Below, piece by piece: positions 1,285 to 13,894 of a stretch of 20,000 nucleotides of DNA (positions within the stretch are counted from its first letter, which is position 1; each line of letters starts with the position of its first letter). The DNA comes from an uncultured virus (IMG/VR IMGVR_UViG_3300045930_000291). Its lineage: Duplodnaviria; Heunggongvirae; Uroviricota; Caudoviricetes. The notes beneath the pieces were generated by a model, which was not told the DNA's origin, made no database searches, and worked only from the letters and a program-made list of their open reading frames with translations. The stretch lies in the IMG/VR virus record IMGVR_UViG_3300045930_000291. One strand, given 5' to 3'. The translations under genes were made by a program, and so were the position numbers.

Positions 1285-2454
1285 TCACAGGTCGGTCAGC
1301 TCCTCCGCGACCTCGGCGTCGAGCTCGTCCGCCGCGATCTCCCTCAGCGCCTCCGCCACCGCGTCGAGGATGCCCTGATCGACCTCCTCGCGCAGGTGCC
1401 CGTACAGCGCGTCGGTGACCGCGATCGACGAGTGGCCGAGCCGGCGGGAGATCGCCGACAGTGGCCGGTTCGCGGCAATCAGCATGGCCGCGTGGGTGTG
1501 GCGCAGGTCGTGCACCCGCAGCCCGTCGAGTCCGGCCCGGGCACAGGTGGCCAGCCAGATCCGCCGGAAGTTCCGGGTCCGGATCATGTTCCCCAGCACT
1601 GTGGTGAACACGACCTCGTCGCCGTCCTTCCCGACCAACAACGGAGCCAACCGCAGCGCGACCGTGGTCGGGAACGAGACGGTGCGCCGCGACCGGGCCG
1701 ACTTCGGGGAGGAGAAGTACAGGTCGGATCCGGATCCGGGCCGCTCCTGCAGCTGCTCCTCGACCCGCAGCTGGGGCCGGGCCGCGAGCAGGTCGACCCG
1801 CCGCACCTTCAGCCCGATCGCCTCACCCCACCGCAGCCCGGTCGCCACCAGCAGCAGCACCAGCGGACGCCAGTGCTCGGGCATCGCGGAGATCAGCCGG
1901 CCGATCTCCGGGTCCGACAGGAACCGCATCTCCTTCGGTTCCCGCTTCGGCAGCGACTTGCCGGTGGACACGCACGGGTTGATGCGGATCCGCCGCGCCG
2001 CGACGGCGGCGTCGAGGATGGTGTGCAGCACGCCGTGCACGTTGTGGACAGTCTTCGGGGCCAGCCGCCTGCGCGCGCCGTGGGTGCTCGGCCACGGACC
2101 GAGGCCGTCGGAGAGGTCGGACAGCCACTGCAGGATGACCACCGAGTCCAAGTCGTCCAGCACGTACCCGCCCAGCAGCGGCCGGATGTGGTTGCGGACC
2201 CTGGCGCCCTCAGAGTGGGCGGACGTGTCCTTGAGGCTGCGTTCGTAGTGCGGCCACCACTCGTCGATCCAGTCGTCGAGGGTGATCGTCCCACCCCGAG
2301 GCAGGAGGGCGTCGCCGCGTAGCACGTCGGCCGCGAGTAGCTTCATCCCGTCGTTGGCGGCGGCCTTGGTGCGGTAGCCGCCGGCGATGGTGACCTTGCG
2401 TCCGCCGCGCTCGTCGCGGATGCGGAACTTCTTGCCGTGCGGCTCAACCCACAT
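1285..2454 (-). CDS. int: Tyrosine recombinase / phage integrase
   Basis: Catalytic motifs TGLRWGE (R), PKS (K), VHDLRHTHA (HxxR), LGH and ALYGH (Y); 389 aa with an N-terminal arm-binding region; adjacent to the att core. Confidence 0.97.
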   Translation of the reverse strand: MWVEPHGKKFRIRDERGGRKVTIAGGYRTKAAANDGMKLLAADVLRGDALLPRGGTITLDDWIDEWWPHYERSLKDTSAHSEGARVRNHIRPLLGGYVLDDLDSVVILQWLSDLSDGLGPWPSTHGARRRLAPKTVHNVHGVLHTILDAAVAARRIRINPCVSTGKSLPKREPKEMRFLSDPEIGRLISAMPEHWRPLVLLLVATGLRWGEAIGLKVRRVDLLAARPQLRVEEQLQERPGSGSDLYFSSPKSARSRRTVSFPTTVALRLAPLLVGKDGDEVVFTTVLGNMIRTRNFRRIWLATCARAGLDGLRVHDLRHTHAAMLIAANRPLSAISRRLGHSSIAVTDALYGHLREEVDQGILDAVAEALREIAADELDAEVAEELTDL

Positions 2455-2839
2455 CGGGTCCGCCGACGAGGTCGATCATCGCCTGGGTGGCCTCGAGCTC
2501 GCGCGCCCGCCGTTCGCGGACGTGGGCGATCATCCTGGCTTTCTGCGGGTCGGACAGCCTGGAGCCGAGGATCACCCGCAGTTCCGGGTCGCTGATGTCG
2601 GGGCTTCCGATGATGTTGCCAGCGGCGAACATGGCCAGGGCCATGTCCACGTCCAGCGCTGCGGCGATCGCGCGGACGCTCGCGACGTTGAGCGAACGAC
2701 CGCCAAACCGGATCCAGTCAAAGATCGTCCCCCGGGCGATCCCGGACTCTCGTGCCAATCTGGCGACACTCCACCCCGGCTGCGAGGTCATCGAGCGGAG
2801 GAACCGCGACCATGCGTCGGGGCCCTCGACAGTCGCCAT
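2444..2839 (-). CDS. XRE-family HTH immunity repressor (CI-like)
   Basis: GWSVARLARESGIARGTIFDW is an XRE HTH. The gene overlaps the int start and is divergent from cro. ATG 2839 is preferred over the ORF-track start 3034 because the extension spans the intergenic switch. Confidence 0.85.
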   Translation of the reverse strand: MATVEGPDAWSRFLRSMTSQPGWSVARLARESGIARGTIFDWIRFGGRSLNVASVRAIAAALDVDMALAMFAAGNIIGSPDISDPELRVILGSRLSDPQKARMIAHVRERRARELEATQAMIDLVGGPDVG

Positions 2840-3111
2840 GCGTAGACAATATGTGTCGCTCCACCTGCGCGGATAGGTCGGTGGACGTCCTCTCCCGGTG
2901 ACGGTTGCCCGGGGACTGGCGTGTCCCCTGACCCGGTTCTTGCGCCCTGCCCACTCGCGCTCTCTGTGTCGCATATGGGCGACTGTAACTCTCACCCTTT
3001 TAACGCGCGACTGACCGAACGGGTGAATCGTCACTCGTAGGGGTCGTTACTTGCGTCATGTCTTGGTGACGGTTTAGTCTCTTCGCCATGGCAGCGACAT
3101 CTCTAGGTGAC
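2832..3111. promoter_or_regulatory. Lysis/lysogeny switch region with 16-bp operator-like sites GTC-N10-GAC
   Basis: GTCGCCATGCGTAGAC 2832-2847, GTCCTCTCCCGGTGAC 2887-2902, GTCGCATATGGGCGAC 2968-2983, GTCATGTCTTGGTGAC 3055-3070; degenerate copies at 3030-3045 and 3096-3111. Confidence 0.65.
3051..3080 (+). promoter_or_regulatory. Rightward early promoter (HrdB/SigA type), probably leaderless transcript
   Basis: TTGCGT (3051-3056), 18-nt spacer, TAGTCT (3075-3080), then 7 nt to ATG 3088; no Shine-Dalgarno. Confidence 0.7.
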
Positions 3112-3357
3112 GGTCTCGACCTCGACAACGAGGTTGAGGCCGTTTTGCGTGTGGAGGTCTACCGCGCGTTCGTGGCCGCCCGCGGCATCACGAGCGTCAC
3201 CGCAATGGCTGCCCTGCACGGGATCAGCCGCCAGCACATGCACCGACTGCTCAACGGCGAGCGCACCGCGAGCCTCTCGCTCGCGATGCACATCGCCCGT
3301 CAGTTCAACACGACGGTCGAGGCGCTGTTCGAGCTGAAGAAGGCGAGGGCGGCGTGA
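3088..3357 (+). CDS. Cro-like XRE HTH regulator
   Basis: SVTAMAALHGISRQHMHRLLNGERTASLSLAMHIARQFNTTVEALF is a typical HTH_3 pattern; first gene divergent from the repressor. Confidence 0.88.
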   Translation: MAATSLGDGLDLDNEVEAVLRVEVYRAFVAARGITSVTAMAALHGISRQHMHRLLNGERTASLSLAMHIARQFNTTVEALFELKKARAA

Positions 3358-3614
3358 TGTACGACCTCACCGAGGCGGCGTGCCAGCTCTGCGTGAGCCG
3401 CGAGTGGCTGCGCAAGCAGGTCACCGCTGAGCGGGTCGCGTGCACCCGCCTCGGTCGGAAGGTGCTCTTCACCGACGAGCAGATCTCGCAGATCATCGCC
3501 GATCACGTGCAGCCCGTGGCCAACCATCGACCGCGGCTGTCCACCGACGCAACCCCGGCAGCCGGGCAGGCCAACCCAGCCAACCAAATCGACGAGCGCG
3601 GCGAGTTGAGATGA
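3354..3614 (+). CDS. xis: Excisionase-like HTH_17 DNA-binding protein
   Basis: YDLTEAACQLCVSREWLRKQV...TRLGRKVLFTDEQI matches the Xis/HTH_17 pattern; follows cro with a GTGA overlap. Confidence 0.82.
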   Translation: MMYDLTEAACQLCVSREWLRKQVTAERVACTRLGRKVLFTDEQISQIIADHVQPVANHRPRLSTDATPAAGQANPANQIDERGELR

Positions 3615-3691
3615 GCCGCCGCCGCCTATACCCCGCACCGCCGACCTCCCCCGGCGTCGGTGCGGTGCGCCAGCCCCTCCCCCCGGGCTGA
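3611..3691 (+). CDS. Possible 26-aa peptide MSRRRLYPAPPTSPGVGAVRQPLPPG
   Basis: ATGA overlap with the xis stop; lies over the first two hairpins of the structured segment. Confidence 0.35.
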   Translation: MSRRRLYPAPPTSPGVGAVRQPLPPG

Positions 3692-3873
3692 GCGCAAGGG
3701 GGGCCCAGCCGTTCTGAGGGGTGCGGACGGGCCCCCCACCTCAAGACGTGGGGGAGCCGGAAACTACCGATCCACGGGATGGGCACTCGGCCAGCCGGCT
3801 CCCCCACACCGCAAGACCTGAAGACGACCGAGGACCCGAACCGGTCAGCACCCGGCCGGGCCCTCTCGAAGAC
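3633..3873 (+). other. Array of five consecutive stem-loops (putative structured RNA element)
   Basis: Inverted repeats at 3633-3665, 3666-3696, 3698-3737, 3748-3807 (perfect 13 bp) and about 3829-3868 (imperfect). Confidence 0.6.
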
Positions 3874-3898
3874 CAGATGACACAAGGAGATGGTCAAC

Positions 3899-4756
3899 GT
3901 GACAACCACTCTACCGGCCACACAGGACGAAGGCGCGACCATCGGCGTCGAGCTGTACGGCGACGAGCACCAAACCTGGCTCGGCCGCCATCCGATTGCA
4001 CCGTATCGCCAGCCCGGCGAGCCGACGATCGTGCGCCGCCGCGCCGGCCAGATCGCGGCAGTGTTCCCCGCGGCCGGCAGTGTCGAGGAACTCGACGTGA
4101 TTGCTGCCGGCCTGGCTCCGACGTGGACGTGCCGGCACATCCCCGCCGTCGTCGGCAAGATATGGGCCTGCCCCGAACAGGGCTGCGGCTACCACATCGC
4201 CGACGGCCCGGCCCCGGACGATGAACTGTCCACCTTGGAGCTGATCCGCGAGCACCTCGAACAGCACGAGCGCGATCGGGCTCCCGGCCCGTACGCCGGG
4301 GTTGCGGCCGAACTACGGCGTATCGCCGACGACCTCGCCACGATCACCGGCGACCAGTCGGTGCTCGGGGTCAGGCTAACCGTCTACGTGCCCTACGGCC
4401 TCCGCAACGCGAGCGACGCCCGCACTGCCGATCTGGTTGACCCGGTGGCGTTGGCCCTGACGGGTGAGTCCGGCCAGGCCGAGCGGGCGGGCGCCGGCTG
4501 GCACCACCAGGCCAGTTGTGACCGTGGCCCCGTGAACGTCTGGGTGTACGGCACCATCGCAGATCCGACCGTGCGGGAACAGGACGCCGAGCTGGAGCGG
4601 CTGCGCGCGGAGAACGACGCACTGCGCTTGGCTGCAGGTCAGTCGGGCCCAAAGGCTGTATCTGCCGCTGCCACGAGCGTGGACCCCGCCGACCCTATCG
4701 GCTCTGCCTCCGGTGTGGCCTCCTCGGGTGACGCCGCCGGGTCGGTGTCCCAGTGA
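3899..4756 (+). CDS. Hypothetical phage protein with C2H2-like Zn-finger segment and C-terminal coiled coil
   Basis: AAGGAG at 3884-3889 favours GTG 3899; contains CPEQGC...EHLEQH and ELERLRAENDALR. Confidence 0.75.
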   Translation: MTTTLPATQDEGATIGVELYGDEHQTWLGRHPIAPYRQPGEPTIVRRRAGQIAAVFPAAGSVEELDVIAAGLAPTWTCRHIPAVVGKIWACPEQGCGYHIADGPAPDDELSTLELIREHLEQHERDRAPGPYAGVAAELRRIADDLATITGDQSVLGVRLTVYVPYGLRNASDARTADLVDPVALALTGESGQAERAGAGWHHQASCDRGPVNVWVYGTIADPTVREQDAELERLRAENDALRLAAGQSGPKAVSAAATSVDPADPIGSASGVASSGDAAGSVSQ

Positions 4757-5151
4757 CCCGCCCGGTGGACCCGCTGTGCGAGCGGCTGCGTGAGATCCGC
4801 CAGCGCGCTGGTCTGTCGCTGCAGCAGGTGCAGGAAAAGTCCGCGGGCCGGTGGAAGGCGGTGGTGGTCGGTTCGTGGGAGCGCGGCGACCGGACGCCCA
4901 CCGTACGCGGCGCGCGGGAACTGTTGGACTTCTACGGCTTCCGGCTGGAGGTGCTTGGTCCGGACGATGTGGTGGCTCGCCACGGCGCGGACGGGGGGTC
5001 CAGTGTGGACTACTTCGTCGTGTACGGCGGCGGTTCGATCCCGTGCGCAGACTTCAGTGAGGCCGAGGCGATCGCGTCACACATGCCCGGCTCGCGGGTG
5101 GCGTACCGGACGCGGACGGTGGGCGATCTGGTGCTGGTCGGTGCGTCGTGA
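4753..5151 (+). CDS. BldD-like XRE regulator (BldD DNA-binding domain with an unrelated C-terminus)
   Basis: LREIRQRAGLSLQQVQEKSAGRWKAVVVGSWERGDRTPTV..ELLDFYG closely matches the BldD N-terminal signature GLSL..VEEKS.GRWKAVVVGSYERGDR...DFYG; GTGA overlaps at both ends. Confidence 0.88.
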   Translation: MTRPVDPLCERLREIRQRAGLSLQQVQEKSAGRWKAVVVGSWERGDRTPTVRGARELLDFYGFRLEVLGPDDVVARHGADGGSSVDYFVVYGGGSIPCADFSEAEAIASHMPGSRVAYRTRTVGDLVLVGAS

Positions 5152-5759
5152 CCCTCAGTACGGACGTATACGTCCTCGACGAAGTCGACCCAGCCGAGGT
5201 GTTCCGCTTCTGCCAAGGGCTGTTGACCAAGTACGACAACCCGCGCCACATGCCGCCGCGACTGCAGCGGGTACGCGACGAGCAGGATACGTCGTACACC
5301 GGCACCCCGGGAGAGTTTGAGGTCCGACCGGGCAACCCGTGGTCTCGCGACAACGAACCGCAGCAAGGGCTGCCAGCGTGGCTCATGACCTCGTACCGGC
5401 CCGACGGTCCCCTTCGGGCCGAAGTGGCTGGCCACGATGACGACTGCGACGAGGACTGCACCGGCAATTACCACGACCGCGCATGCTGGATGTCGATCGA
5501 CTTTGACACGGCGTACGGCTACCGCGACGGCCGTGGCTGGGGATGCGGCGACCTGCACGCGGCCATGGTGTCCGAACTCGGTGCCTGGCTCACGACTAAG
5601 GGCGTCCGCTGGGAGTGGCGCAACGAGTTCACGGGCGAGGTCCACACCGGACCCGACGGGTTGACCGAACTCGGTAAGGCCGGAGCGGAGGCACAGGACT
5701 GGTTCCGCACCGCCGTTCTTCCCGCCATCGACGCCAGCCTGTCGGGCGGTGGTTCATGA
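5148..5759 (+). CDS. Hypothetical phage protein
   Basis: 203-aa ORF coupled to its neighbours, GC3-rich, with a small Cys/His/acidic cluster HDDDCDEDCTGNYHDRAC. Confidence 0.8.
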   Translation: MTLSTDVYVLDEVDPAEVFRFCQGLLTKYDNPRHMPPRLQRVRDEQDTSYTGTPGEFEVRPGNPWSRDNEPQQGLPAWLMTSYRPDGPLRAEVAGHDDDCDEDCTGNYHDRACWMSIDFDTAYGYRDGRGWGCGDLHAAMVSELGAWLTTKGVRWEWRNEFTGEVHTGPDGLTELGKAGAEAQDWFRTAVLPAIDASLSGGGS

Positions 5760-5965
5760 CCCCCGTCGCCCGTCTCCTCGCCCAGCATCACGCCGGCATG
5801 CTCACCACCAGCCAGCTCATCGACGGGCTGCGCCGCGAGGGTGTGGCCAACCCTGAGGGGCTGGCCAACGACCGGAGCCTGCCGGACCCGTCGTCGTGCG
5901 GGTTCGAGCAGCGCGCAGCCGTCCACATTGAGCGGTCGCCGCTACTCGGCGGGTGGGTGCGATGA
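5756..5965 (+). CDS. Small hypothetical protein
   Basis: ATGA overlaps at both ends. Confidence 0.65.
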   Translation: MTPVARLLAQHHAGMLTTSQLIDGLRREGVANPEGLANDRSLPDPSSCGFEQRAAVHIERSPLLGGWVR

Positions 5966-6306
5966 CGACCCCGAACGACGCCGTGTACAACTGGCTGCGC
6001 ACCTACGCCAGCCGTTACCTCGACACCGACGTACCGGTAGAGGACCTGGCCCGGATCGCTGATATGGCGGTTGCGGGCCTGCGTGACGCGGGCCTGCTAA
6101 ACCGGGGCGAGACGACGCCGCGAACCTTCGCACTTCCGGAGATGCCGGCAGACGTGGTGGCAGTAAAGGACCGCGGGGGAAGGACGTGGCGTCGATATGA
6201 GCCCGGTGACGATTTCTGGGTCAACGACGGAAGCATCGTCGGCCACTCGTCGATTCAGCTGATAGCCACCCGGGGTCCACTCACTGAGGTGGTGGACTCG
6301 TCGTGA
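5962..6306 (+). CDS. Hypothetical phage protein
   Basis: ATG 5962 overlaps the previous stop; C-terminal VVAVKDRGGRTWRR...RGPLTEV module. Confidence 0.75.
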   Translation: MTTPNDAVYNWLRTYASRYLDTDVPVEDLARIADMAVAGLRDAGLLNRGETTPRTFALPEMPADVVAVKDRGGRTWRRYEPGDDFWVNDGSIVGHSSIQLIATRGPLTEVVDSS

Positions 6307-6638
6307 CCCCCACCTCCACCGCCTTCACCGTGCTCGCCGTCATCGCCTGCCTCGCCGCATCCGGCATCGGCCTGTGGTGGGCCATCAGCCGCGCCGCGCG
6401 GGAATTGACAACCGCCGACACCGAAACTGACGGCGACCTGACCGAGGTCATCCCGTGGGCCGACCTCACGCAACCCCCACGGCGTGAGGTGCCCGACTGG
6501 CTCGATCACCAGGACGAGTGCGACGAAGAGTTCGACGACCTTGTCGTCGCGCTGATCGAAACCGATCAGCCCTGGGTCGACGCCTTCGAGGCGCTCGGCG
6601 AAAGGCTGCGCGACTACGACCCGGAGGAGTCCCGATGA
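6303..6638 (+). CDS. Membrane-anchored acidic hypothetical protein
   Basis: N-terminal TM segment AFTVLAVIACLAASGIGLWWAI followed by a D/E-rich tail. Confidence 0.75.
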   Translation: MTPTSTAFTVLAVIACLAASGIGLWWAISRAARELTTADTETDGDLTEVIPWADLTQPPRREVPDWLDHQDECDEEFDDLVVALIETDQPWVDAFEALGERLRDYDPEESR

Positions 6639-7258
6639 CCGTACTGATCCCATGGTGGGCCCAAGCCGCTGCCGTGCCACTGCTCATCACATTCGGCTGG
6701 TGCGCCGCATACTCCCGCCTGTGGTGGATGCGAGAGCAGGTCGCCGACCAGAAAGCTGACCTAGCCCGGCTCACCACTTGGGCCCCGACGACGGCCGAGC
6801 CCCGCGAGCCGGGCGCCACGCTGTGGCCGAAGCCGTTGCACCCGCGCGACCGGGAACGACTGCTCGCGTTCGCCAACCGGGGTGCACTACCAGCGGTGCC
6901 GGCGCCGCCGCGTCTGCGCCGCCCGGATCCGCTGTGGGAACCGCACGACACCGGGGTGGGTCGGCGTTGGGTGCCGGCAGCTGCGCGGCCGACATGGCGG
7001 CAGCGAATCCGCACCGCCATGCGGCTGTGGCTGGCCCGGGCGAAGCGGTACGTACCGATGGTGGGTGCACCTGGACGGCACCGCGCTGACCTTTCGTGGT
7101 CATCGCGGCCGGACGAAAAGGTGTCGGTCCAGCCAACTCCTGAACCCACCGTCGTCGAGGTGATCGCGGCCGAGCCCCACGCCGACGACTTCGACCGGGC
7201 GTTCCGTGAGATGGAGGCCGGGCTGCTGGCCACGATCGCTAGGGGCGGTGCCCGATGA
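6635..7258 (+). CDS. Membrane-anchored Pro/Arg-rich hypothetical protein
   Basis: GGAGGAG RBS then ATG 6635 (ATGA overlap); N-terminal hydrophobic segment. Confidence 0.7.
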   Translation: MTVLIPWWAQAAAVPLLITFGWCAAYSRLWWMREQVADQKADLARLTTWAPTTAEPREPGATLWPKPLHPRDRERLLAFANRGALPAVPAPPRLRRPDPLWEPHDTGVGRRWVPAAARPTWRQRIRTAMRLWLARAKRYVPMVGAPGRHRADLSWSSRPDEKVSVQPTPEPTVVEVIAAEPHADDFDRAFREMEAGLLATIARGGAR

Positions 7259-12918: not shown

Positions 12919-13367
12919 TGGGCCGCCTCATCGTCTGCCGCCTCTGCGGCGAAGAGAAAGACCACAAGGCCGACGGCTGCTGCGCCACCTGCTACGCCGC
13001 CGACTACCGCGACCGCCGCGGCGACGGCGCACCCCTCGTCGACGGGCGTGGCTCGCCCGGGCTGGCCGCCATACTCGGTGCCCCCGGTGGACCAACCATG
13101 CGGCAGGTCGACAACTGGGTGCGCCGCGGCCTGCTCCGCCCCACCGTGGTACCCGGCGAAGGGCGCGACCGGTGGGAGTGGGATCCGACCGAGCAGTTCG
13201 TGGCCGTACGGATGGCTCGCCTGTTCACGGCCGGGCTGCGCGCTGACGCCGCGGAGAGGGTCGCCCGTCACCCGGCCGGGGGCCCGGTGGTGCTCGGCCC
13301 GCAGATCGTCATCTCCGTCTTCCCGCTGCGCCCCGCGGCAAACGTGGAGGAGGCGAGGGCATCGTGA
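12915..13367 (+). CDS. Zn-ribbon plus MerR-like HTH protein
   Basis: N-terminal CxxC..H...CxxC; TMRQVDNWVRRGLLRP...GEGRDRWEW...RLFTAGL is a MerR-type winged HTH pattern. Confidence 0.72.
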   Translation: MMGRLIVCRLCGEEKDHKADGCCATCYAADYRDRRGDGAPLVDGRGSPGLAAILGAPGGPTMRQVDNWVRRGLLRPTVVPGEGRDRWEWDPTEQFVAVRMARLFTAGLRADAAERVARHPAGGPVVLGPQIVISVFPLRPAANVEEARAS

Positions 13368-13894
13368 GGTCAGCCTTCCTGCCACTGCTGCCGGACCAGA
13401 CCTGGGTAGACCGCGCCGCGTGCCGTCCAGGTACCGACGTGCCGGCGGCCCTGTTCTCCTCCGCCACCATGCCGGCCAAAGCCGCCGCCCTGCACGTTTG
13501 TCACAACCACTGCCCGGTCGTGGCCCAGTGCGCGGCGGAGGCCGCGTCGACCGACAACCGGTCGATCGTGATGGGCGGGGTCTCCTATAACCAATACGGC
13601 AAACCCAACGACGACCGCCGCATCGCACAGACCACATGCCCGCTGTGCACCTACCGACCGCAGCCGTGGCCGGCGCACGGCGCGCAGTCCCGGCGTGGAC
13701 GAAAAGAGACCGGACTGGATCCCTGCGGCACGGATGGCGCCTACTCGCGTCATGTGCGCCGCAAGGAGTTGATCGACGAGGCGTGCCGCGAGGCGCACCG
13801 GGCGGCCGGGTTGTTACGCAAGCAGGAATTGCGGCAGCGCTGCCGTGCCGGGCAGTGCCCGCATCCGCAGCACCGTAAGGCGGTGGCGTCGTGA
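13364..13894 (+). CDS. WhiB-family (Wbl) regulator with C-terminal extension
   Basis: WVDRAAC...LF...ALHVCHNHCPVVAQC...IVMGG supplies four Cys and a degenerate G[V/I]WGG turn; extra CGTDGAYSRH...C domain. Confidence 0.8.
   Translation: MRSAFLPLLPDQTWVDRAACRPGTDVPAALFSSATMPAKAAALHVCHNHCPVVAQCAAEAASTDNRSIVMGGVSYNQYGKPNDDRRIAQTTCPLCTYRPQPWPAHGAQSRRGRKETGLDPCGTDGAYSRHVRRKELIDEACREAHRAAGLLRKQELRQRCRAGQCPHPQHRKAVAS

Follow-up and report, generated by a model that had tools for sequence, protein, structure and literature searches.

A BldD-like early regulator with a different C-terminal domain in a probable temperate actinophage

The window analysed here, 20,000 nucleotides of DNA from an uncultured virus, encodes a 132 aa regulator which, on profile and alignment evidence, joins a BldD-type helix-turn-helix (HTH) domain to a small C-terminal domain of another kind. 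BldD is the master developmental repressor of sporulation in sporulating actinomycetes; BldD and c-di-GMP are at the top of the network governing development and antibiotic production. The regulator may be an accessory early transcription factor which occupies host BldD boxes regardless of c-di-GMP and represses development (probability about 0.4). Takeover of the host regulon and purely phage-internal regulation are about equally likely.

The gene and its phage setting

The regulator gene lies in a rightward operon, and its surroundings are as follows.

1285..2454, - strand: tyrosine integrase; shares 65% identity with IntM of Micromonospora phage pMLP1
2444..2839, - strand: cI-like HTH repressor, the immunity-type regulator of the phage itself; adjoins the integrase
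3088..3357, + strand: Cro-like HTH regulator, with which the rightward early operon opens
3354..3614, + strand: excisionase-like protein (phrog_1840)
3890..4756, + strand: 288-aa protein without a family match, encoded just upstream in this operon
4753..5151, + strand: regulator gene, BldD-DBD-like (BldD-model and PDB matches, GC3, N-terminus in common with P0003)
5148..5759, + strand: 203-aa protein of phrog_2984 (unknown function); its gene follows and overlaps the regulator gene
13364..13894, + strand: WhiB-like transcription factor; with the regulator, it makes two homologues of host developmental regulators in this phage

The regulator gene has a GTG start, which is supported by close relatives (including P0003) with the same N-terminus. 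The start shares the letters GTGA with the stop of the upstream gene, and the regulator gene's own stop overlaps the next gene's start. Its GC3 is 0.86. Both the reading frame and residues 12-62, as quoted in an earlier sequence-only reading, match the translation exactly. Contigs from RNA libraries match the regulator gene (4995..5145) and its neighbours exactly; past about 10.6 kb there are no exact full-length pieces among them, an absence from which nothing is inferred.

The integrase, cI-like, Cro-like and excisionase genes support the assignment of the regulator to an early operon of a temperate actinophage, and agree with the phage-encoded setting proposed earlier. The regulator is the fifth gene of this operon, between the excisionase and the recombination genes; a GC-rich gap of 275 nt (3615-3889) precedes the 288-aa upstream gene. 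BldD orthologues have conserved chromosomal synteny, as PMC4255298 describes for the orthologues it treats; the regulator does not share it, being located in a phage early operon. The Gp3-like protein of the phage has its nearest relatives in Streptomyces phages. The host was probably a high-GC actinomycete that sporulates, similar to Micromonosporaceae or Streptomyces, and the phage probably came from soil.

Identity with a cI-type immunity repressor was considered and rejected: the switch site is taken by the cI-like gene on the minus strand and the Cro-like gene on the plus strand. Since these genes are present separately, the regulator is unlikely to be the lysis-lysogeny switch. A promoter and terminator scan of positions 2700-6700 found no promoter-like site and two terminator-like sites (1.2 expected), and is uninformative. 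A tRNA scan, used as a clue to attP, found no tRNA.

Protein domains and family

The protein can be divided into three parts.

4774..4962, + strand: BldD-type four-helix HTH, aa 8-70 (profile, PDB, fold and BLASTP evidence)
4936..4983, + strand: conserved post-HTH segment, aa 62-77 (family alignments, dimer model, HipB-like fold matches)
4999..5118, + strand: C-terminal beta-beta-alpha-beta domain, aa 83-122 (family HMM and alignments, structure model)

The HTH helices are at aa 7-18, 23-29, 36-44 and 51-60; the extended turn and recognition helix are formed by aa 30-47. Similarity of this domain to BldD is, by all the scores that follow, far above chance. The NCBIfam BldD model NF050110 matches the regulator at 79 bits (E 3e-22, profile positions 9-75). 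The Pfam families HTH_31 (PF13560; 27.5 bits, gathering cut-off 27) and HTH_3 (PF01381; 25 bits, cut-off 23) are both matched above their cut-offs. In a search of PDB sequences, the DNA-binding domain of S. coelicolor BldD (2ewt) is found at E 2.7e-17, and the first non-BldD match is at E 0.18. The structure model superimposes on 4ob4 and 2ewt with an rmsd of 0.6-0.9 Å at 61-64% identity. Identical residues number 37 of 61 aligned positions with 2ewt (a manual count on the alignment) and 39 of 64 by BLASTP with P0067, which is taken as a full-length BldD on the strength of 293 bits on the NCBIfam model. Over aa 12-62 the identity with P0067 is 34/51 (67%), and over aa 30-47 it is 16/18. The two-thirds identity, the almost wholly BldD-like recognition region and the greater closeness to BldD than to generic XRE proteins (79 bits vs 25-27.5; phage XRE proteins at most 38% identical) had all been claimed from the sequence, and each is borne out. 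The evidence thus supports a specific likeness of the HTH to BldD, as opposed to a generic phage XRE domain.

The regulator retains 25 of the 28 positions with 90% or more conservation across 31 BldDs. Y42W is the sole change from BldD-conserved residues within aa 30-47; the BldD-conserved Q18 and Q19 are replaced by R and A. The C-terminal segment of the DNA-binding domain also departs from BldD (V63F, P64R and others). This segment sets dimer geometry, so the spacing of half-sites may differ from that of BldD. The BldD-DNA complex was resolved at 4.5 Å, and residue-level contacts are not known as far as the account of the complex in PMC4151990 goes.

The C-terminal part had been called unrelated to BldD and devoid of the RxD-x8-RxxD motif, and both statements hold. 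In profile-profile alignment (hhalign) of the regulator family with BldD, the N-terminal 75 columns align and nothing C-terminal does; the aligned part includes a hydrophobic segment past helix 4, which is homologous between the two. The motif is absent from the regulator itself and from all 32 family members, and is found in 25 of 25 BldDs. These results support the replacement of the c-di-GMP-binding domain of BldD by an unrelated small domain, which bears a conserved loop, MPGSRV(G/A)YR. This domain has no usable match in the protein atlas, no Pfam family for the regulator, and no credible match among PDB sequences (best E 0.0013, no single aligned stretch passing by itself). The best Foldseek match has E 1.4, and the best Z in a VIA-align comparison with 48,161 chains is 3.2. 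The absence of such matches does not make the fold new.

On this domain architecture the regulator belongs to an undescribed family with a BldD-type HTH and a beta-beta-alpha-beta C-terminal domain, and does not represent an isolated capture. With an HMM of this last domain, 32 relatives are found among 158 collected proteins, at E-values from 1e-4 to 1e-40. The members reside in early regions of phages or prophages and are diverse (at least 32 clusters); one, P0022, is annotated in Catenuloplanes. The family consensus of the post-HTH segment is RLxVLxPGDVVV. A search of viral contigs with the single protein found no match, whereas a search with the family alignment found 11 loci. In three of these (L002-L004) the family gene is a few kb from a divergent integrase and ahead of recombination genes; the downstream neighbours are small membrane-like proteins and are not conserved. 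The sole locus that the C-terminal-domain alignment found in genome contigs (L012) was rejected as a Mur-ligase-like false positive. A single match in the plasmid set, confined to the N-terminal domain and located in a Nonomuraea record of 11.85 Mb, is presumably the Nonomuraea BldD and was also set aside. Among 50,697 GenBank phage records, no protein matches at E 1e-3 and only generic XRE proteins appear up to E 10; the best match has E 8e-3 and at most 38% identity across part of the HTH. The window DNA has no match among GenBank phages. A literature search for phage-encoded BldD-type regulators found no described example; the sequence-only reading likewise named no characterised one.

On the BldD model, the family's N-terminal domains reach 48-83 bits, against roughly 135-160 for those of true BldDs. 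The range for full-length BldDs is 250-293 bits, and the regulator's 79 bits for the whole protein is under the curated cut-off of 250. About half of the family has no BldD-type extended turn (G-R-W-K), so recognition of BldD boxes cannot be its common function. In one tree the regulator is placed outside a clade holding 31 of 32 motif-bearing BldDs (SH-aLRT 97), and in a second outside a clade holding 30 of 32 (support 93/96), a placement that rests on an alignment of only 63 columns. Both trees show the family as a grade that lies outside the compact clade of BldDs; for rooting, the Cro-like outgroup was dropped (branch length 10), and the cI-like outgroup is also long-branched. BldD-type HTH domains are also present in viral contigs of 45-47% GC, whose hosts are unlikely to be sporulating actinomycetes. 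The earlier proposal that the phage captured the DNA-binding domain of BldD and swapped its sensor is therefore only partly upheld: the replacement domain is unrelated, but capture as stated does not fit a diverse family which scores 48-83 bits, in about half of its members is without the turn and lies outside the BldD clade, nor the presence of BldD-type HTH domains in the 45-47% GC contigs. Sequence comparison places the HTH with BldD and apart from generic XRE proteins, and the trees place it outside the BldD clade.

Dimerisation, DNA sites and function

A homodimer of the regulator is predicted with an ipSAE of 0.60 (three runs: 0.58, 0.60 and 0.60; best control 0.00), a score which may reflect solved HTH dimers already known to the predictor and which rests on an alignment made in this work. 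The mark used is reached by 20 of 30 solved homodimers and by 1 of 23 solved monomers. The runs share at least 88% of contacts, and the partner pLDDT is at least 77. Structure prediction had been proposed as a check on dimerisation through the C-terminal domain; a dimer is indeed predicted, but it is centred on the strand after the HTH. The predicted interface consists of aa 62-77, aa 48-58 and the N-terminus, and at its centre is an antiparallel pairing of aa 63-69. BldD, as described in the structural account in PMC4151990, has DNA-binding domains which dimerise weakly; c-di-GMP drives dimerisation of the C-terminal domain and raises their local concentration, a c-di-GMP tetramer being required to bring two of them together. 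The same account calls the DNA-binding mode SinR-like. Since the regulator is predicted to pair through its post-HTH strand, its dimerisation may not need c-di-GMP.

The BldD box is the palindrome TNAC-N5-GTNA. The 20 kb window contains no canonical box (about 2 expected), and five phage loci contain 2 (about 8.3 expected); depletion in these loci is not claimed, as the null model overestimates at other spacings too. Palindromes of BldD half-sites with spacings of 0-12, in either orientation, are not enriched in the 20 kb. TNAC/GTNA words are dense in the cI-cro switch region (2840-3087): its 248 nt contain 16 of them, a density 3.7 times the mean of the window.

If the regulator is a c-di-GMP-independent stand-in for BldD, its HTH, with a near-identical extended turn and recognition helix, would read BldD-box-like palindromes. 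The post-HTH strands of two copies would pair to give a stable dimer without ligand, and the beta-beta-alpha-beta domain would stand where BldD has its c-di-GMP-binding domain. With the recognition surface of BldD and self-dimerisation, the protein should occupy TNAC-N5-GTNA sites at any c-di-GMP level. As there is no BldD box in the 20 kb of phage DNA, host BldD boxes would be the most likely targets, and host developmental genes would be kept repressed during phage replication; only 20 kb are in view, and targets in the phage's own DNA could be elsewhere. The missing boxes and the predicted dimer are compatible with action on the BldD regulon but do not show it. Host development contains phage infection, according to the results given in PMC10117723 for two mutants: a hypersporulating bldD mutant has smaller plaques, and resistant cells regrow faster; a vegetative-only bldN mutant has large clear plaques. 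An extended form of the proposal is rather unlikely. It would make a family of early proteins of temperate actinophages self-dimerising c-di-GMP-independent BldD stand-ins, which occupy host BldD boxes, keep infected hyphae vegetative, prevent the escape by sporulation that restricts the spread of plaques and act with the phage WhiB-like factor, while the C-terminal domain senses a phage or host cue.

Phage HTH proteins mostly act on phage DNA. The regulator could accordingly be phage-internal, controlling delayed-early or late genes, or the exclusion of related phages, through its own operators; its likeness to BldD would then reflect common descent in an actinobacterial and phage XRE subfamily, possibly the source of BldD. 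This has practically the same standing as the stand-in reading. As diversifying operator specificity would lead one to expect, the N-terminal domains vary, and the BldD-type turn is missing from about half of them; the grade outside the BldD clade, the occurrence of BldD-type HTH domains in low-GC contigs and the early-operon position conserved in L002-L004 point the same way. The dense TNAC/GTNA words of the switch region could be such operators, but their density is partly due to base composition and equally fits operators of cI and Cro, a pair which already provides the phage with regulators. Nor does the window have the spacing-5 BldD palindrome or an excess at other spacings. The 16/18 identity in the turn and recognition helix, retained despite about 40% divergence elsewhere, is unexplained if operators drift freely.

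A competitor or dominant-negative form of host BldD, which occupies boxes without repression or pairs with BldD DNA-binding domains by way of the homologous segment at their C-terminal end and so de-represses the regulon, is improbable. It would share BldD's recognition surface, and its predicted interface lies at the segment homologous to the one that makes the weak contact between BldD DNA-binding domains, but the interface residues are unlike those of BldD. Such a protein would also appear to be at odds with phage replication, because de-repression would speed sporulation, which in the mutant results of PMC10117723 limits spread. Still less probable is a HipB-like antitoxin or autoregulator, whose HTH-plus-strand dimer neutralises or regulates the product of the overlapping downstream gene. 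HipB chains are the next fold matches after BldD (70-72 columns, E 2.4e-3 to 1e-2), the dimer is predicted to be strand-mediated and the two genes overlap; however, no toxin or defence system matches the 203-aa downstream product, PADLOC finds only a weak HTH match, and the downstream neighbours vary in L002-L004.

Should the stand-in reading be true, the regulator would be a natural tool for uncoupling BldD-box occupancy from c-di-GMP. It would also be the first case of phage takeover of the BldD checkpoint, and a handle on sporulation and secondary metabolism. If its only targets are phage genes, the family still informs the question of where the DNA-binding domain of BldD came from, since it shows this domain to be a module that mobile elements have too.

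Comparison with known systems

BldD (NF050110; 2ewt, 4ob4) is the nearest known system. Both proteins have a four-helix XRE-type DNA-binding domain with a turn two residues longer (S-x-G-R-W-K) and the helix VVVGS(Y/W)ERGDR. The regulator differs in having neither the BldD C-terminal domain nor RxD-x8-RxxD, in its position outside the BldD clade and in a phage early operon, and in its predicted ligand-free dimer. XRE proteins of the HipB/SinR type have an element after the HTH that pairs the subunits, as is predicted for the regulator, and HipB chains are at fold ranks 4-6; identity is only 13-18%, and the regulator has no HipA-like partner and an extra beta-beta-alpha-beta domain. Generic phage XRE repressors (cI/Cro; phrog_4) share the HTH_3 and HTH_31 matches and a weak phrog_4 match (E 7.5e-4), but their identity is at most 38% over part of the HTH, and the regulator is not at the switch. 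The WhiB- and Lsr2-type regulators of actinophages, among the examples in PMC8612146, are likewise phage-borne homologues of host global or developmental factors; they belong to other protein families.

A BldD-type DNA-binding domain joined to a different C-terminal half

The reading frame at 4753..5151 (+) is a genuine gene with a GTG start and a product of 132 aa. Codon usage is typical of a high-GC coding sequence (GC3 0.86, GC2 0.52), and the gene overlaps both neighbours, its start lying across the upstream gene's stop and its stop across the start of the gene that follows. The N-terminal residues of the closest relative, P0003, are the same. The residue string quoted for aa 12-62 in the sequence-only reading matches the translated frame exactly, and the close identity to BldD stated there holds against a full-length BldD (P0067): 34/51 residues (67%) are identical over this stretch, 39/64 in the BLASTP alignment and 16/18 across aa 30-47, which comprise the turn and the recognition helix. 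The NCBIfam BldD equivalog NF050110 matches residues 8-74 with 79 bits (E 3e-22), and the generic Pfam models HTH_31 and HTH_3 score 27.5 and 25 bits. Among all PDB sequences, significance is reached by the DNA-binding domain of BldD alone (2ewt/4ob4, E 2.7e-17; next E 0.18). An AlphaFold model from a 32-sequence alignment (mean pLDDT 90) superposes on the solved BldD domains with an rmsd of 0.6-0.9 Å. The protein keeps 25 of the 28 positions conserved in at least 90% of 31 motif-bearing BldD representatives; the departures are G9C, Q18R and Y42W. No match at E 1e-3 was found in 50,697 GenBank phage records, and at E up to 10 only generic XRE repressors appear, with identities of at most 38%. 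By the comparisons with the BldD model, the PDB and the phage records, the likeness is specific to BldD, and the protein does not group with generic phage XRE proteins.

The C-terminal part is unrelated to BldD, as had been proposed: profile-profile comparison of the family (alignment A2) with BldD (A5) aligns 75 N-terminal columns only, with a probability of 99.8%. The c-di-GMP motif RxD-x8-RxxD, a signature reported as perfectly conserved in BldD (PMC5499655), is present in 25/25 BldDs compared and 0/32 family members; its absence from this protein is confirmed. Residues 83-122 are predicted to form a beta-hairpin followed by a helix and a strand. This domain has no match in Pfam or the protein atlas, no credible match among PDB sequences (best E 0.0013, where no single aligned stretch passed by itself), and no convincing structural match in Foldseek (best E 1.4) or in VIA-align against 48,161 chains (best Z 3.2).

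Family members and their relation to BldD

Searched exhaustively with HMMER, 1.84 billion representatives yielded 879 matches at E <=1e-3. Among 158 proteins collected, an HMM of the C-terminal domain identifies 32 relatives with overall identities of 35-62%. The single capture of a BldD DNA-binding domain that was first envisaged gives way to a family, of which this protein is one member; wherever context is visible, the surroundings of family genes are phage-like. A tyrosine integrase in divergent orientation is found 2-5 kb from the gene in IMG/VR contigs L002-L004, where the gene precedes YqaJ, RecT, RusA or DUF3799 genes; in locus L001 the gene is downstream of a RecD-like helicase. Public records give the L001 protein (P0022) as a Catenuloplanes HTH protein encoded on a contig of 9.7 Mb, which suggests a prophage in a sporulating representative of the Micromonosporaceae. 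PHROG has no entry specific to the family; the sole match is phrog_4 (E 7.5e-4).

BldD-type N-terminal domains also occur alone (75-100 aa) or with other C-termini (P0008, P0042, P0098, P0066, P0025 and others), so the domain is modular beyond this family; P0042 has a Cys- and His-rich tail. P0015 (1002 aa) and P0026 (703 aa) have an unusual architecture of 8-11 tandem XRE HTH domains, with RstR-like matches up to 435-572 bits. The representative library also holds many BldD fragments that are cut short, frameshifted or joined to ProC, NusB or a response regulator (e.g. P0047, P0061, P0073, P0120); faulty assembly or gene calling is the probable cause.

Trees were built from 86 rows picked from the 158 proteins, leaving out about 70 rows resembling truncated or frameshifted BldD; the 63-column domain gives low resolution. 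Motif-bearing BldDs fall in a single clade in both the quick tree (31/32, SH-aLRT 97) and the careful tree (30/32, 93/96), with the phage protein outside it each time. The careful tree groups the phage protein with P0003 and P0009 in a supported trio (99/86). The family members make up a grade. Scored on their own against the BldD model, N-terminal domains of true BldDs reach about 135-160 bits, compared with 48-83 bits for the family. The phage protein is 52-65% identical to BldD N-terminal domains (median 57), a range which overlaps the low end of BldD-to-BldD pairs (median 68, 5th percentile 52). In about half of the family members the turn is two residues shorter and lacks G-R-W-K. Four viral contigs of 72-102 kb and 45-47% G+C (L005:3472-3678, L007, L008 and L009:8001-8162) encode BldD-type HTH domains with a long S-x-G-K-W/H-K turn, a BldD-like tail and short, different C-termini; the careful tree places them within or close to the BldD clade. 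The grade, the short-turn members, the viral occurrences at 45-47% G+C and the other C-termini show the BldD-type domain to be a module common to BldD and mobile-element proteins. Outgroups are long-branched, so root and direction of transfer are not readable from the trees.

Genomic setting and occurrence

The window represents a temperate phage's early region and has the following features:

1285..2454 (-), tyrosine integrase
2444..2839 (-), cI-like HTH gene
3088..3357 (+), Cro-like HTH gene
3354..3614 (+), excisionase
3615-3889, GC-rich non-coding gap of 275 nt, between the excisionase and a 288-aa gene
between this gap and the BldD-like gene, the 288-aa gene, with no assigned function
past the BldD-like gene, further small genes, a recombination exonuclease, a Gp3-like protein and a DnaQ-like exonuclease
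13364-13894 (+), WhiB-like factor (Pfam Whib E 1.3e-8; phrog_12112)
also in the window, a Hjc-type resolvase, an HNH endonuclease and a C5 methyltransferase

Since separate cI-like and Cro-like genes are present, the BldD-like protein is not the lysis-lysogeny switch; it is the third HTH protein of the region, in an accessory role. BldD has been described as a repressor of host whiB (PMC10117723); the phage thus has homologues of two linked developmental regulators. Clues to the host are the integrase, which shares 65% identity with IntM of Micromonospora phage pMLP1, the Gp3-like protein, whose nearest relatives are in Streptomyces phages SF3, VWB and mu1/6, and the G+C content of 69%. Inverted repeats and runs of G/C abound in the 3615-3889 gap, which may mark a transcriptional boundary before the operon with the BldD-like gene; a simple terminator scan found nothing within it.

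At least part of the window is present in 20/20 soil metagenome runs listed, possibly from one campaign; ten contain at least half of the sampled words, and six of these may be the source. Three soil metatranscriptome libraries contain contigs identical to parts of the early operon, at 3321..3549, 4188..4386, 5217..5812 and, inside the BldD-like gene, 4995..5145 (151 nt). DNA carry-over is possible in such libraries, so these contigs are weak evidence of transcription.

Predicted dimer and possible targets

DNA binding by BldD requires C-terminal domains bridged by c-di-GMP; the DNA-binding domains make a weak contact (<300 Å2 buried) through hydrophobic residues near the domain end (PMC4151990). 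In the family, the homologous segment after helix 4 is conserved (consensus RLxVLxPGDVVV), and it is central in the symmetric interface of a predicted homodimer, where antiparallel pairing of aa 63-69 is supplemented by aa 48-58, the N-terminus and a few residues from the final strand. The homodimer scores 0.60 (runs 0.58, 0.60, 0.60) against 0.00 for the best control, with at least 88% of contacts agreeing between runs and a partner pLDDT of at least 77. In calibration the mark was reached by 20/30 solved homodimers and 1/23 solved monomers; the pass is based on an analyst-built alignment and may partly reflect solved HTH dimers. If the predicted dimer is real, it would hold BldD's recognition surface in a ligand-independent form.

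The slightly favoured reading, to which we give a probability of roughly 0.4, is that the protein binds BldD boxes independently of c-di-GMP and acts on the host regulon. The BldD box, TNAC-N5-GTNA (PMC4151990), is absent from the 20-kb window (2.0 expected), where no half-site spacing from 0 to 12 is enriched, and four related loci have only two further boxes; the sites of a protein with BldD specificity would therefore lie in host DNA. A biological rationale comes from phage Alderaan on S. venezuelae: plaques were smaller, and resistant cells grew back faster, on a hypersporulating bldD mutant, and a vegetative-only bldN mutant showed large clear plaques (PMC10117723). A regulator with its own operators in phage DNA is nearly as likely, and several points count against host boxes. 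Q18 and Q19 of BldD are changed, the differing interface residues may alter half-site spacing, and the window covers just 20 kb of this phage. The BldD-DNA complex was solved at 4.5 Å, without residue-level contacts (PMC4151990). Phage DNA also has a region dense in TNAC/GTNA words between cI and cro: 2840-3087 holds 16 in 248 nt, the densest part of the window and 3.7 times its mean. Palindromes there, such as GTGA-N4-TCAC at 3023-3034, and a stem formed by 3054-3071 are probably operators of the switch proteins.

Competition with host BldD, the other role proposed from the sequence, is unlikely. A HipB-like antitoxin or autoregulator is less likely again; HipB chains come next after BldD in the fold search, in line with the predicted strand-paired dimer.

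In the literature searched on BldD with phage, prophage or actinophage (titles, starts of abstracts and some passages), no phage-encoded BldD homologue was found described, in agreement with the statement that no characterised example was known. WhiB and Lsr2 homologues are already known from phages (PMC8612146); the BldD-type homologue is an addition to such cases.
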